Shown: one piece after another, positions 3,901-61,292 of the stretch | Layout: each line of letters starts with the position of its first letter | Position numbering within the stretch: position 1 is the stretch's first letter | Assembly: GCA_964533715.1 (NCBI GenBank) | Contig: CAZHNI010000001.1 | Coordinates: 5,514 to 69,513, forward strand | Reading direction: 5' to 3' | Source of the DNA: an uncultured Gammaproteobacteria bacterium | GTDB lineage: Bacteria; Patescibacteriota; Patescibacteriia; Magasanikbacterales; GWA2-37-8 | DNA: 64,000 nucleotides | Notes under the pieces: generated by a model | Told to the model about the DNA's origin: nothing | Seen by the model: only the letters and a program-made list of their open reading frames with translations | The model's database searches: none | Program-made: the position numbers and the translations under genes

Positions 3901-5664
3901 ATGTCTATGCCAAAAATTTTTAAGAATAAAAAATTTTTAATTGGGGTCGGCTTGATTATTCTGCTTGTTGGATATTATTCATATGGCCGTTATAAAAAAG
4001 CTCACCAGCCAGTAGCGTATGACACTGTATCAGTAAAACGTGGAGATCTGGTGCAAACTGTTGATGCCACCGGAAAATTAGAATCGGTTGACGATGTGGA
4101 TCTTCGTTTTGAAATTCCTGGTACGGTTGGCCAAGTAAATGTTGTTGAGGGTGGGACCGTAAAGGCACAGGCTATTTTAGCGACTCTCCGTTTAGGCGAA
4201 CTTAATGCGGCCGTGGCACAAGCCGCGGCACTTCTTAACCAAAAGTTAGCCGGCGCTTCAACTGAGGATGTGTCATATTATAAAGCTGCTATGGACGCAG
4301 CTCAGGCGTCTTATTTGCAGTCAAAAATTGACGCAGTGGCTTTACTATCCGGTGCTCAATCGGCTGTAGAAACCGCAAAAAATAATTTAAAGCTGGCTGA
4401 GGGCGGCGATCAGAGCCAGATTGTTATTAATGCTTATCAAAATGCAGTCGTAGCACTCCATGAGTCTGTTTCTAAATTGGATGATTCTCTAACCCAAGCG
4501 GATAATATTTTGGCGGTTGATAACGTGCTTGCGAACGATGCTTTTAAAGATTATCTTTCTCGTAATGATATTTCTAAGTTGAATATCGCTAAAGCGTTGT
4601 ATGCTGATGCTAAAATTCAAAAAAATAATTTTAGAAATGTCGCCGTTGTATTGACAACAAATAGCCCGCATGCAGATGTAGATGGCGCCTTTGGTTTGTT
4701 CGACGTGGCTTTTAACAAGATGAACCAGCTCTTAATTGCGGTGTCTGATGTTTTGACCGCGACCCCGCCAGTTTCGAACTTAACCCAGGCAGCACTTGAT
4801 GCCAAGAAAACAATAATTGAAACCGCTCGCGCCGCGCTTTCATCCGAATACGCGACTATGATTAACCAAAAACAATCATTGGCCGACGCAAAAACCAGTT
4901 TGGAAGCTTACTCCGCCGCTTACACCAAGGCCCTGCGCGATTTGGAGTCGGCTAAAGCAAACGCCTCAACTTCAGTGCAACTTAAAGAGGCTGCCTACAC
5001 TCAGGCTTTGTCAACGTATCAAACCAAAGTAAACCCACCACGCGAAGTTGATATAGCGCCTCTTCGCGCCGCTCTTTCACAAGCGGTGGCTAATCGTGAA
5101 AAAGCTATCATTCGTGCGCCATTTGACGGGCAGGTAACTAAGATATCAAAAAAAGTAGGGGAAACAGTTTCTTCGGCAGATATTATTATGAATATGTTTT
5201 CTCCACATTTTGAAATAAAAGTTGATGTTCCCGAAACCGATGTAGCCAAACTTATTGGAAATAATGGCAATGCGGTTACGTTTACCGTTGATGCGCTTGG
5301 AGAAGACCAAAAATTTAACGGTCAAGTTTTAACTATTGAGAAAAAATCAACTGAAATTCAAGATGTTGTATATTATCAAGTACGAATTGCCGTTAATAAA
5401 GGATATGAAGATAAACCGTTTAAATCTGGAATGACCGCCAATGTGGTAATTCACACAGCCGATCGGTCACAGGTTTTGTTTGTTCCACTTCGCGCCGTGC
5501 GAACTCGTACCGATGGCACTAAGTATGTTCGTATTCTTGAGAATGGGGTAGAAAAGGAAGCGACTGTTAAGCTTGGTCTTAAAGCTGATGAAAATAAGGT
5601 TGAAATAGTTGAGGGTCTTACCGAAGATCAGGTGGTTATATTAGGCGTTAAACAGGCAAGTTAA
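3901..5664 (+). CDS. HlyD-family periplasmic adaptor / membrane fusion protein (MacA-like)
   Basis: N-terminal TM segment, long Ala/Gln-rich coiled-coil, and C-terminal beta-barrel (FDGQVTKISKKVGETV...). It is followed by MacB-like ABC genes. Confidence 0.65.
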   Translation: MSMPKIFKNKKFLIGVGLIILLVGYYSYGRYKKAHQPVAYDTVSVKRGDLVQTVDATGKLESVDDVDLRFEIPGTVGQVNVVEGGTVKAQAILATLRLGELNAAVAQAAALLNQKLAGASTEDVSYYKAAMDAAQASYLQSKIDAVALLSGAQSAVETAKNNLKLAEGGDQSQIVINAYQNAVVALHESVSKLDDSLTQADNILAVDNVLANDAFKDYLSRNDISKLNIAKALYADAKIQKNNFRNVAVVLTTNSPHADVDGAFGLFDVAFNKMNQLLIAVSDVLTATPPVSNLTQAALDAKKTIIETARAALSSEYATMINQKQSLADAKTSLEAYSAAYTKALRDLESAKANASTSVQLKEAAYTQALSTYQTKVNPPREVDIAPLRAALSQAVANREKAIIRAPFDGQVTKISKKVGETVSSADIIMNMFSPHFEIKVDVPETDVAKLIGNNGNAVTFTVDALGEDQKFNGQVLTIEKKSTEIQDVVYYQVRIAVNKGYEDKPFKSGMTANVVIHTADRSQVLFVPLRAVRTRTDGTKYVRILENGVEKEATVKLGLKADENKVEIVEGLTEDQVVILGVKQAS

Positions 5665-50406: not shown

Positions 50407-50931
50407 ATGAAATTTTTACAGACGCTGTGGCAAATTGGCGTGGCACTTTTTTTTATTTTGCTCCAAGTGAGCATTACAATTCTTTTTCCGCATTTATTGG
50501 TTAACTTTAATATTATTTTAATTGCCGCTATTTGTTGGATTCTACTCAGACAATCTTATGAGCCAATAATTTGGTCCTTATTTTTACAATTGATATTGGA
50601 AATTTTTGGAGTTTTACCATTTGGTACTAGTCTTATACCGCTTGCAGTATCTTTATTTTTAGTACACAAAATGGTTCAAACTATATTTACTAATCGTTCG
50701 CTCTACATGGTTTTTATAGCTAGTGCTATAGGAATAATGCTATTTCAAATTATTTTTATTCTTTTGCGTTGGGGAATAACCGTATGGAATGGTGGGCAAT
50801 ACTATTTTTCAATTCAATTTTTTGTGGACACTTTTAAAATGTGGTTTATTCAAACAGCTATCGTGGCAATTTTTTATTTTATTATATTTCGATTAAGCTC
50901 TGCGCGGAGTCCAAAGTTTATCCATCTATAA
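50407..50931 (+). CDS. mreD: MreD-like polytopic membrane protein
   Basis: Position after mreC and five TM helices. Confidence 0.45.
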   Translation: MKFLQTLWQIGVALFFILLQVSITILFPHLLVNFNIILIAAICWILLRQSYEPIIWSLFLQLILEIFGVLPFGTSLIPLAVSLFLVHKMVQTIFTNRSLYMVFIASAIGIMLFQIIFILLRWGITVWNGGQYYFSIQFFVDTFKMWFIQTAIVAIFYFIIFRLSSARSPKFIHL

Positions 50932-55071: not shown

Positions 55072-55467
55072 ATGAAAAAAGTAATGGTGTTTGGGACATT
55101 CGACATTTTACATCCCGGTCACACTCATATGCTTAAAGAGGCGAAAGAATATGGTGACTATTTTGTTGTTGTTGTTAGTCGTGATGAGACAGTGTGCCAA
55201 CTGAAAGGAAAACCTCCAAAAAATTCAGAAAATTTACGATTAAAGCAGGTAGAAGCCTTAGGCATAGCCGATAAAGTGAGATTAGGTTGTTTGGACGACA
55301 AACATCAGGCGGTTAAAGAGGAAGATCCTGACATTGTGGCCATAGGCTATGATCAAAAGTTTTTTTTAGATGATCTAGAAAAAAGCTTAAAAAGTTCTGC
55401 TCAGATAGTACGGCTGACCCCTTTTAAACCGGAAATTTACAAAAGCTCAAAATTACGACATGATTAA
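55072..55467 (+). CDS. cytidylyltransferase-like HxGH nucleotidyltransferase (RibL/TagD family)
   Basis: GTFDILHPGH motif and ~130 aa length. Confidence 0.5.
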   Translation: MKKVMVFGTFDILHPGHTHMLKEAKEYGDYFVVVVSRDETVCQLKGKPPKNSENLRLKQVEALGIADKVRLGCLDDKHQAVKEEDPDIVAIGYDQKFFLDDLEKSLKSSAQIVRLTPFKPEIYKSSKLRHD

Positions 55468-56485
55468 AATTCTTTTTGCCACCACCAACGAAGGAAAATT
55501 TAAAGAACTTCTTACCGAAGTAGGGGATTTACCATTTAAATTTGTAAGTCTTAAAGATGTTGGGCTTAGCGGCTATTTGGTAGACGAACCATTTGAAACT
55601 ACCTGGGAAAATGCCGTTCACAAATCACAAGAATATGGCAAGAAGAGCGGTCTCATTACATTTTCTGAGGACACTGGTTTTTTTGTTCAGGCACTCAAAG
55701 GAGCCCCAGGGGTAAAAGCGCATCGCTATGCCAACTCGCCAAACGAACGCGTAAGCAAAGTTTTGCAATCGCTTAAAAATGTACCGGAAAAAAAACGCCA
55801 GGCATATTTTGAAGCAAGCGGATGTTTGTATAATCCAAAAAACGATTCTTTTACAATTTTAAGAGGCAAAGTTAAAGGGTTCATCACAACACGGATGATT
55901 GGTCAAAACGAACTGGGAATGACCTACGATGCTATTTTTTACTATCCACCACTTAAAAAAACTTTTTCTCAAATTTCAATTCAAGACAAGAATTTAATTA
56001 GCCACCGCGGTAAAATTATTAACCAACTCCGTATTTTTTTACTCCGCAACTACGGGTTTAAACAAATTATTGTCCCCATTGCTTTTGTAGTAAAGAATCG
56101 CAAATTACTTCTTCTCAAACGCCGCGACCATCGTAAGAATCTCAACGAACGGTGGGAATTTCCGGGCGGGGGAATAGAGAATGGTGAAAGCGTAGAAAAA
56201 GCAATTGTGCGGGAAACAAAGGAAGAAAGCGGGTTTACGGTCGACATCACCAAACAACTAACGGGAATACCTACCATTGTGCGTAAAGCACAAAATGATC
56301 CATTTCAAATTTTTTTAGTGCCATTTTTGTGTTCTGTAAAAAGTGGCAAGTTAAAAATTGCTCCGCATGAAGCATCCGAAGCAGGCTGGTTTACTATTAA
56401 AGAATCTTTAGCTTTAAATCAATTTCCACTTAATAAAAAAATAATTCGTCAACATTTATCATTACTTAAAAAATATATTGATTAA
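55460..56485 (+). CDS. fusion of Ham1/RdgB-type non-canonical NTP pyrophosphatase (N-terminal) and NUDIX hydrolase (C-terminal)
   Basis: N-terminal ILFATTNEGKFKEL...SEDTGFFV Ham1 signature. C-terminal Nudix box GGGIENGESVEKAIVRETKEESGF. Confidence 0.65.
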   Translation: MIKILFATTNEGKFKELLTEVGDLPFKFVSLKDVGLSGYLVDEPFETTWENAVHKSQEYGKKSGLITFSEDTGFFVQALKGAPGVKAHRYANSPNERVSKVLQSLKNVPEKKRQAYFEASGCLYNPKNDSFTILRGKVKGFITTRMIGQNELGMTYDAIFYYPPLKKTFSQISIQDKNLISHRGKIINQLRIFLLRNYGFKQIIVPIAFVVKNRKLLLLKRRDHRKNLNERWEFPGGGIENGESVEKAIVRETKEESGFTVDITKQLTGIPTIVRKAQNDPFQIFLVPFLCSVKSGKLKIAPHEASEAGWFTIKESLALNQFPLNKKIIRQHLSLLKKYID

Positions 56486-60569: not shown

Positions 60570-61292
60570 ATGACTACTGAATTAAGTATAGCAGACATTA
60601 AAAAAGAACTCAATGCACAGATTAAGGATCCGGAAACGCTTAAATCTTTGTTGGTTACTACCTTCAAAGGTTTAACCGCGGACACAGCCAAACAAGCCAT
60701 GTTAGAAGGGATGATGCGCGGTTTTACTTTCAAGGACTTTCTCCAGAAAAATGTTTATGCCGTGCCGTTCGGTCAATCTTACAGCCTTGTTACGTCGATT
60801 GATAATGCCAGAAGAATAGGCATGCGCAATGATGTGGTAGGCAAAACAGCCCCAATCTACGAGGAAGAGGTTATTACTACCGGCGAGAAAAAGGTAAACA
60901 AAATCGTTTCGTGCACTGTTACAGTAAAACGCAAAATTAAGGACTACATAGGTGATTTTACAGCGACGGTATTCTTTGATGAGTATAACACGGGACGCAA
61001 CCAATGGGCTTCCAAGCCGCGCACCATGATCGCTAAAGTTGCCGAGATGCACGCCCTGCGCATGGCTTGCCCGGAAGACGCCTCGCAGATGTACCTTGAG
61101 GAAGAATACGAAAAAGAAACAATCGTTGAAGAAGAGATATTTAATCTTGAGGAGCACAAATTAAAATTAGAAGCCTGTAAAAATCTTGAAGAAGTAAAAA
61201 CAGTTTGGGCCTCTTTACCGGCTAAAGCTAAAGGCGAGCTGTTTACACTCAAAGAAGAAATGAAAAAAAAATATGAAAGTCCTAAAGTTTAA
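60570..61292 (+). CDS. recT: RecT-family single-strand annealing protein
   Basis: RecT core including W..KPRTMIAKVAEMHALRMACPED, matching the RecT W-x-P-x-M-x-x-K-x-A motif. Confidence 0.65.
   Translation: MTTELSIADIKKELNAQIKDPETLKSLLVTTFKGLTADTAKQAMLEGMMRGFTFKDFLQKNVYAVPFGQSYSLVTSIDNARRIGMRNDVVGKTAPIYEEEVITTGEKKVNKIVSCTVTVKRKIKDYIGDFTATVFFDEYNTGRNQWASKPRTMIAKVAEMHALRMACPEDASQMYLEEEYEKETIVEEEIFNLEEHKLKLEACKNLEEVKTVWASLPAKAKGELFTLKEEMKKKYESPKV

Follow-up and report, generated by a model that had tools for sequence, protein, structure and literature searches.

Known members of the RdgB/Ham1/ITPA family, such as RdgB of Escherichia coli (1k7k and 2q16) and of Coxiella (3tqu) and human ITPA (2j4e), are stand-alone proteins of ∼200 amino acids (aa). 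Joining of a sanitizing domain to another enzyme has precedents in NadM-Nudix (NF003785), PRK08999 (NF006530, a 315-aa MutT-type Nudix protein), and PRK02491 (NF002698, a 328-aa Ham1 protein), and Ham1 fusions with a SpoU methylase, GrpB, or HPPK likewise place a pool-sanitizing domain and a second enzyme on one chain. Here, we describe a fusion protein that, unlike these examples (the NCBIfam entries being compared at the level of the models), pairs two predicted sanitizing pyrophosphatases of different superfamilies, Ham1 and Nudix. It is encoded at positions 55460 to 56485 of a 64,000-nucleotide (nt) stretch, hereafter the window, that spans positions 5,514 to 69,513 of contig CAZHNI010000001.1 (assembly GCA_964533715.1, deposited as an uncultured Gammaproteobacteria bacterium).

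A single polypeptide with Ham1 and Nudix domains

The open reading frame (ORF) runs from ATG to TAA over 341 codons with no internal stops. Its parts, and the evidence on which each is defined, are as follows.

55460..56485, + strand: complete Ham1-Nudix fusion ORF, 341 aa plus stop; identical to protein P0001 on a 137-kb NCBI contig
55469..56032, + strand: Ham1/RdgB-type domain, aa 4 to 191; Pfam, PDB sequence and fold matches to RdgB (3tqu, 2q16, 1k7k), residue invariance
56033..56086, + strand: junction, aa 192 to 209; AlphaFold2 (AF2) model, no insertion or deletion in the aligned rows, no alternative start codon
56087..56449, + strand: MutT-like Nudix domain, aa 210 to 330; Pfam, profile-to-PDB matches, end-to-end alignment with E. 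coli MutT
56168..56236, + strand: Nudix box, G237-x5-E243-x7-R251-E252-T-x-E255-E256-x-G258-F259; read from the sequence, positions invariant or ≥90% conserved
56432..56434, + strand: N325, counterpart of E. coli MutT Asn119; alignment with E. coli MutT

Both Pfam matches are far beyond chance: PF01725 (Ham1p_like) covers profile positions 1 to 184 of 186 with E = 4.3e-38 and 131.5 bits (gathering score, 22.5), and PF00293 (NUDIX) matches with E = 2.6e-19 and 70 bits (gathering score, 21.1). Three motifs stand out, ILFATTNEGKFKEL at aa 4 to 17, SEDTGFFV at aa 69 to 76, and GGGIENGESVEKAIVRETKEESGF at aa 236 to 259. In a PDB sequence search, the N-terminal half retrieved the RdgB proteins of Coxiella (2e-25) and E. 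coli (4e-23), and the C-terminal half retrieved MutT/Nudix proteins. The G+C content is equal between the halves (Ham1, 0.379; Nudix, 0.366). An earlier note, made from the letters of the window alone, had proposed a single Ham1-plus-Nudix polypeptide here; the uninterrupted ORF and the search for PF01725 and PF00293 that it suggested bear this out. Its coordinates and domain sizes (190 and 140 aa) were correct, and the Ham1 signature and canonical Nudix box that it quoted are present among the motifs above.

The same architecture recurs widely. Among 5.8 billion clustered proteins, a search found 2,300 matches, of which the best 120 were inspected for domains; all 120 carry both Pfam domains, with 41 to 100% identity and lengths mostly between 336 and 349 aa, and they stem from four independent sources (NCBI, JGI, ENA, and Logan). 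When 1.84 billion representatives were scanned exhaustively with HMMER (E ≤ 1e-30), 43 proteins were returned. About 20 of these, as clusters at 50% identity, are full-length fusions of 342 to 351 aa with 33 to 52% identity, and beneath them on the list are stand-alone RdgB proteins of ∼200 aa.

For residue-level comparison, 33 close and 18 divergent members were aligned (51 rows; the window protein and P0012 are in both sets). None of the 51 rows has a gap in the 18-residue junction, and codons 180 to 215 contain no ATG, GTG, or TTG able to start a separate Nudix gene. These observations bear on whether two separate genes might have been joined through a missed stop or frameshift, an assembly or sequencing artifact that the earlier note had placed at about codon 190. 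In favor of such an artifact are a homopolymer of seven T residues inside the junction (56033 to 56039) and the occurrence of frameshifted assemblies of the locus, for example L007. However, the reading frame is continuous and agrees with all homologs on either side of the T run, conserved residues flank the junction, and the single ORF recurs in >100 independent clusters from the four sources and in ten other fetched loci. The conservation across assemblies and the gap-free junction exclude a stop or frameshift there, and the artifact explanation is effectively refuted.

The two halves are conserved to the same degree. Mean pairwise identity in the Ham1 and Nudix halves is 0.505 versus 0.513 in the close set and 0.412 versus 0.390 in the divergent set, and neither half shows the signs of a passenger that is decaying. 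An AF2 model built from the 33-sequence alignment has a mean predicted local distance difference test score (pLDDT) of 92.5, a predicted template modeling score (pTM) of 0.76, and no low-confidence segments. In this model, the last Ham1 helix (residues 182 to 198) passes straight into the first Nudix strand (201 to 212) without a flexible linker, a feature that sets the fusion apart from the stand-alone RdgB proteins. In a Foldseek search of the PDB, no chain spans both halves, and the top query-normalized template modeling score (TM-score) is 0.53.

Catalytic residues and predicted substrates

The N-terminal 198 aa have the fold of the RdgB/Ham1/ITPA proteins, at 30 to 34% identity. Compared with the RdgB structures 3tqu and 2q16 by Foldseek, the modeled Ham1 half gives target-normalized TM-scores of 0.87 to 0.91 and root mean square deviations of 1.7 to 2.4 Å. 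Across the close and divergent members, there is no variation at N10, K13, E43, K55, D71, K177, or R183, ≥90% have R89, and an S181-H182-R183 motif is present. According to the account in PMC3899018, which cites Savchenko 2007, E. coli RdgB binds the triphosphate through Lys13, Lys53, and Arg87 and uses Asp69 in catalysis. These residues correspond to K13, K55, R89, and D71 of the fusion, which thus retains the triad and the Asp together with E43 and the SHR motif, as do its stand-alone relatives.

In the Nudix half, the invariant positions are the box residues G237, R251, E252, E255, E256, and G258 and, outside the box, R221, D223, W232, and E233. The consensus GX5EX7REUXEEXGU is complete in G237...F259, with T253 in the first U position; the canonical box is shared with MutT (1mut and 3a6t), Bartonella 3hhj, NudG/Orf135 (2rrk), and M. 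smegmatis MutT2 (5zrp). When the profile of the divergent family was compared with the PDB, the best Nudix match was MutT 3hhj (4e-17), followed by the Bdellovibrio RNA pyrophosphohydrolase BdRppH 3ees (2.5e-16), MutT 4v14 (1.8e-14), NudG 2rrk (4.8e-14), and MutT 5x1x (1e-13). The best NCBIfam Nudix models are also of the MutT type, all below their cut-offs: PRK08999 (56 bits), TIGR00586 (47 bits), and PRK10776 (44 bits). By fold, the half matches the Aquifex Ap4A hydrolase 3i7u, BdRppH 3ees, MutT2 5zrp, and the NudG-like 3gwy and 2rrk (Foldseek TM-scores, 0.77 to 0.88).

To place individual residues, E. coli MutT (a query identical to 1mut over all 129 residues) was aligned with 49 family members. 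The C-terminal 140 aa align with it end to end, and the WEFPGG motif before the box is shared. MutT R23 corresponds to R221 (49/49), E34 and F35 correspond to E233 and F234, E98 corresponds to E304 (48/49), and W104 corresponds to W310. MutT N119 corresponds to N325, which is Asn in 45 of the 49 members, Asp in three, and Ser in one. Asn119 has been singled out for recognition of 8-oxoguanine, and its replacement by Ala lowers the affinity for 8-oxo-dGMP 1,650-fold (PMC4338371). The Nudix half is most likely a MutT-like nucleoside triphosphate (NTP) pyrophosphohydrolase acting on 8-oxo-(d)GTP, judging by these profile and residue matches, and both halves look catalytically competent. Residues 201 to 332 also match the PADLOC candidate defense model PDC-S07 (76 bits; E = 4e-22), with a score above that of every NCBIfam MutT model.

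We propose that the fusion is probably a bifunctional house-cleaning NTP pyrophosphatase, with a predicted RdgB-type activity on (d)ITP and XTP and, most likely, a MutT-like activity on 8-oxo-(d)GTP. One rigidly joined chain would carry two independent Mg2+-dependent active sites. The Ham1 domain would convert deaminated purine nucleotides, (d)ITP and XTP, to the monophosphate and pyrophosphate, and the Nudix domain would hydrolyze aberrant NTPs of another class, with oxidized guanine nucleotides [8-oxo-(d)GTP] as the likeliest substrates, again to the monophosphate and pyrophosphate; the two halves would not make a reaction sequence. Fusion would secure coexpression of the two domains in equal amounts, and dimerization may be contributed by the Ham1 half.

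The LysRS-SerRS slot and its variants

Organism names given by the sources for the fusion proteins are mostly "Candidatus Magasanikbacteria," with one "Parcubacteria group bacterium." Four third-party annotation (TPA) bins named "uncultured Gammaproteobacteria" (L001 to L003 and L007) have the full Magasanikbacteria-type synteny and the fusion, and the same synteny is found in one bin labeled "Udaeobacter"; both labels are probably misassignments or placeholders. L007 has frameshifts in the LysRS, fusion, and SerRS genes and is simply a poor assembly.

In the window, the gene order is PBP2, GreA, LysRS, a 131-aa nucleotidyltransferase, the fusion, and SerRS, then Alr and an FtsQ-like gene. The LysRS-to-SerRS order is kept in the window, L001 to L005, and L021 to L024, except that the 1.7-kb contig of L024 stops before SerRS, and it persists even where the fusion proteins share only 34% identity. 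Two further scans define what else was seen. With the single protein as the query, a genome scan gave 12 loci, five of which are archaeal (L008 to L012) and match the Ham1 half only (residues 2 to 198; 26 to 31% identity). A metagenome scan with the close-member alignment, which is not a census, listed mostly generic RdgB genes; among the matches listed, only L021 to L024 are fusions. One of its candidates, L094, matched over residues 4 to 289 and was considered as a distant fusion but proved to be an ordinary 231-aa RdgB of a high-GC organism.

Each of the eleven intact fusion loci, the window among them, has the same gene directly upstream of the fusion.

55072..55467, + strand: RibL-like nucleotidyltransferase, 131 aa, PF01467; its stop overlaps the fusion start by 8 nt

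The closest solved relative of this protein is a small archaeal nucleotidyltransferase (3glv; 9e-24). The sources name it "FAD synthase/synthetase" or "adenylyltransferase/cytidyltransferase family protein," and among the NCBIfam models no equivalog cut-off is reached. Its 120 closest relatives are all single-domain proteins, and distant relatives are fused to NUDIX, YfbR-like HD, TruB, 5-formyl-tetrahydrofolate (5-FTHF) cyclo-ligase, or VanY-like domains. A fusion by itself says little about shared function here, because this domain joins many unrelated partners; instead, the pattern argues that neighboring genes may merge readily in these compact genomes. A Rosetta-stone link between the nucleotidyltransferase (CTP_transf_like) and Ham1 was considered and dropped: this combination is rare, occurring in only three clusters, and the same domain also joins TruB, VanY-like, 5-FTHF cyclo-ligase, and HD partners. 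A functional association of the nucleotidyltransferase with the fusion is, at this point, one that we infer.

In related genomes of the candidate phyla radiation (CPR), the slot is occupied by other combinations of the same modules.

L013 to L015 (GCA_002778465.1): 200-aa Ham1 gene only; Nudix and nucleotidyltransferase genes not called
L016: nucleotidyltransferase, 143-aa Nudix gene, and 120-aa orphan
L017: nucleotidyltransferase-Ham1 fusion
L018: nucleotidyltransferase-Nudix fusion
L019/L020: nucleotidyltransferase-Ham1 fusion right after LysRS, then CutA1; the contig ends before any SerRS
L102 (GCA_030650025.1): nucleotidyltransferase-Nudix fusion, no Ham1 in the slot; LysRS carries an HD domain
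L006, 4001-4861 (JACRPD010000029.1, a Magasanikbacteria metagenome-assembled genome): fusion of 286 aa from which the Nudix catalytic helix is deleted in frame, "...WEFPGGAVEYGETII|MEIKW..."

The deletion in L006 is either genuine Nudix decay or an assembly artifact. The nucleotidyltransferase domains of the slot fusions are 40 to 48% identical to the 131-aa protein of the window, and the CTP_transf_like-Nudix and -Ham1 fusions (P0142, P0398, and P0428; P0153 and P0178) are built of orthologous modules, at 40 to 50% identity, in the same slot. They differ in that the upstream nucleotidyltransferase is the fused module, and they are rare, the Ham1-Nudix arrangement being dominant. In per-domain trees (rough neighbor joining with midpoint rooting), the Ham1-only P0129 and the Nudix-only and CTP_transf_like-Nudix proteins P0222, P0177, P0139, and P0142 nest within fusion clades, which suggests secondary loss from a fused ancestor insofar as such crude trees can be trusted.

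Several small features of the variant slots were recorded as well. The LysRS of L102 (1297-3486) is a 729-aa protein whose extra HD domain is a weak Pfam match. Orphan ORFs lie in L016 (3488-3850; 120 aa) and L017 (3115-3504; 129 aa), with no Pfam match on record, and an NCBIfam search of the 120-aa ORF of L016 and of 132-aa and 193-aa ORFs of L013 gave no matches.

The pairing of the two superfamilies also occurs in the opposite order. P0396 (364 aa; L101, 1155-2249, on a 2.6-kb contig of Logan SRR22388053) has a NUDIX domain at residues 22 to 148 followed by Ham1 at 168 to 356. Like the window fusion, it carries both on one chain; unlike it, the order is reversed, and the Nudix domain is 24% identical, with a "WDIGGGG" sequence before the box, and is of a different subtype. 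P0396, known from a single contig, is an independent fusion; therefore, Ham1 and Nudix have been joined at least twice.

Weighing the activities and the origin of the fusion

The proposed bifunctional house-cleaning enzyme draws support from the recurrence of the pairing in P0396 and from a housekeeping context conserved across the eleven intact loci. Several observations count against it. The fusion misses the RdgB equivalog cut-offs (TIGR00042, 120.6 versus 145.35; NF011397, 136.5 versus 234) and those of MutT (TIGR00586, 47.2 versus 97.9; NF008044, 44.4 versus 148). It is a divergent RdgB member and therefore should not be automatically named an RdgB equivalog. Its Nudix half also departs from E. 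coli MutT in having only ∼25% identity, in never being free-standing in most of the lineage, and in lacking MutT K39, which is G238 here and Gly in 37 of the 49 members; Lys39 lies in the Nudix box and contacts phosphate. N325 is Asp or Ser in four of the 49 members. The nearest matches of the Nudix half point to more than one substrate class: its top fold match is the Ap4A hydrolase 3i7u, and its second profile match is the RNA pyrophosphohydrolase 3ees. The one-half relatives L013, L016, L018, and L102, together with L006, show that the pairing is dispensable. Finally, oxidized nucleotides should be rare in anoxic habitats, the source of many of these bacteria.

In one alternative, the Ham1 half would be an ITPase as above and the Nudix half would act on a nucleoside-diphosphate-X compound supplied by its neighbors and not on damaged NTPs. 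The flanking class II LysRS and SerRS might supply Ap4A or Np4N as a side product, or the RibL-like upstream enzyme might supply FAD or a wrongly assembled dinucleotide cofactor, by analogy with NadM-Nudix. We give this a small but appreciable chance. The fold search favors it, with 3i7u at a target-normalized TM-score of 0.88 and with CT771 and human Ap4A hydrolase also matched, and there is a weak match to the NadM-Nudix model NF003785. So does the genomic context: the Nudix domain stays with the nucleotidyltransferase where Ham1 is absent (L016, L018, and L102), CTP_transf_like is joined directly to this Nudix type in at least six clusters, and the nucleotidyltransferase stop and the fusion start overlap. 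Sequence profiles, however, place MutT above the Ap4A hydrolases (4e-17 versus 8e-13), and the counterpart of the base-reading Asn119 of MutT is kept. The partners of the nucleotidyltransferase include TruB, VanY-like, 5-FTHF cyclo-ligase, and HD domains, and its fusion to Nudix need not imply a shared function. Ap(n)A hydrolases reportedly carry a conserved Tyr ∼17 residues past the Nudix box. No position could be assigned to this Tyr with confidence. An aromatic residue is conserved (F282 here; Tyr in 40 of the 49 members), at +23 from the box in the window protein and at +19 to +21 in shorter members, the loop varying in length.

A broader idea takes the nucleotidyltransferase as the center of the unit. 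A RibL-like (FAD-synthase-like) enzyme would be obligatorily paired, in the LysRS-SerRS slot, with interchangeable hydrolases (Ham1, MutT-like Nudix, and YfbR-like HD) that proofread cofactor synthesis, either by removing noncanonical NTP donors (ITP, XTP, and oxidized NTPs) before a promiscuous nucleotidyltransferase could use them or by hydrolyzing mis-made dinucleotide cofactors. Nucleotide hydrolase modules of these three types, Ham1, Nudix, and HD, do recur beside the nucleotidyltransferase gene, which overlaps the fusion start, lies immediately upstream in eleven loci, and is fused to each of them in relatives. The idea is weakened by the fusions of the same domain to unrelated enzymes and by L013, where Ham1 is present but no nucleotidyltransferase gene is recognizable in the surrounding stretch that was fetched. 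We consider it unlikely.

It is quite unlikely that the Nudix half is an RNA 5'-pyrophosphohydrolase of the RppH/BdRppH type that triggers mRNA decay and happens to be joined to an unrelated ITPase. BdRppH 3ees is second among the profile matches and among the top fold matches, and several NCBIfam RppH models match weakly. Yet those models reach at most 34.5 bits against 47 to 56 bits for MutT-type models, BdRppH is itself MutT-like in sequence, the RNA-binding extension is absent, and the Asn119 counterpart is retained.

How the fusion arose can be considered apart from what it does. We propose a single origin in an ancestor of a Magasanikbacteria-related lineage of Patescibacteria (CPR), probably via merging of adjacent genes and with later partial loss in some descendants. 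The earlier note saw in the fusion a fit to a reduced genome; merging of neighbors in compact genomes explains the origin at least as well, because the slot repeatedly merges and loses modules and the upstream domain joins unrelated partners. Taken to its extreme, this would make the protein a selectively neutral by-product of neighbor merging in which one half is being lost; in effect, it would be an enzyme of one function that carries a passenger domain. The single-domain descendants nested in fusion clades, the deleted catalytic helix of L006, and the promiscuous fusions of the upstream gene all fit that possibility. On the other side, the halves are equally conserved, the catalytic residues of both are kept down to 32% identity, the junction is free of insertions and deletions, and the fused form predominates by far (120 of the 120 best matches). 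We regard a passenger domain as very unlikely.

A part in antiphage defense or nucleotide signaling, whether by sensing or destroying dITP-type signals as in the HAM1-like KomB of Kongming or as the candidate defense gene PDC-S07, is most improbable: although the PDC-S07 match and the similarity between the Ham1 half and KomB chains 8zsg and 9v0g suggest it, the RdgB match is far stronger than that to KomB (2e-50 versus 4e-14), the RdgB catalytic residues are intact, PDC-S07 is only a single-gene candidate model, and the genes around it form a housekeeping array that is strictly conserved (PBP2, GreA, LysRS ... SerRS, Alr, FtsQ) and includes no SIR2, TIR, or nuclease partner and no deaminase. 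This defense-system reading was rejected on the housekeeping context and the much stronger RdgB match.

The fusion is real and is conserved within one group of bacteria with small genomes, and it recombines known parts; both domain families have been studied thoroughly, and no new chemistry is implied. The earlier note was unaware of any characterization of this architecture. That holds insofar as no description of a Ham1/RdgB-Nudix/MutT fusion was found in the full-text literature, a search that covered few subscription-journal papers and so amounts to absence of evidence only. The architecture is nevertheless not absent from databases: the database query that the note had suggested found members already deposited in NCBI, JGI, and ENA under the automatic names "non-canonical purine NTP pyrophosphatase," "dITP/XTP pyrophosphatase," and "NUDIX domain-containing protein."

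If both halves are active, the protein would be a natural single-chain enzyme against deamination and oxidation, two major routes of purine nucleotide damage, and the sole recognizable nucleotide sanitation gene in these 64 kb of a reduced genome. Such an enzyme would offer a clean system in which to ask whether colocalized house-cleaning activities bring a kinetic or regulatory benefit and a compact reagent for in vitro cleaning of NTP pools, and MutT-type functions would still be maintained by bacteria of largely anoxic habitats. The variable slot, with its fusions, fissions, partial losses, and partner swaps, is a natural experiment on how multidomain enzymes arise via neighbor merging in compact genomes. 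The importance of the fusion is modest, because neither domain is new and the chemistry is familiar; to a specialist, it is neat rather than surprising.

Other features of the window were noted in passing. It is tightly packed, with nearly all gene-like ORFs of ≥100 aa on the + strand across the 64 kb, and has only three tRNA genes, Pro-GGG (-), Lys-TTT (-), and Gly-CCC (+). Between MreC and PBP2, a 174-aa ORF (50407-50931, +) without a Pfam match could, from its position, be a divergent MreD. Directly past the FtsQ-like gene, a RecT-family protein (60570-61292, +; PF03837, 59 bits) is followed by several small ORFs up to 63684, a group that may be a prophage or mobile-element remnant.

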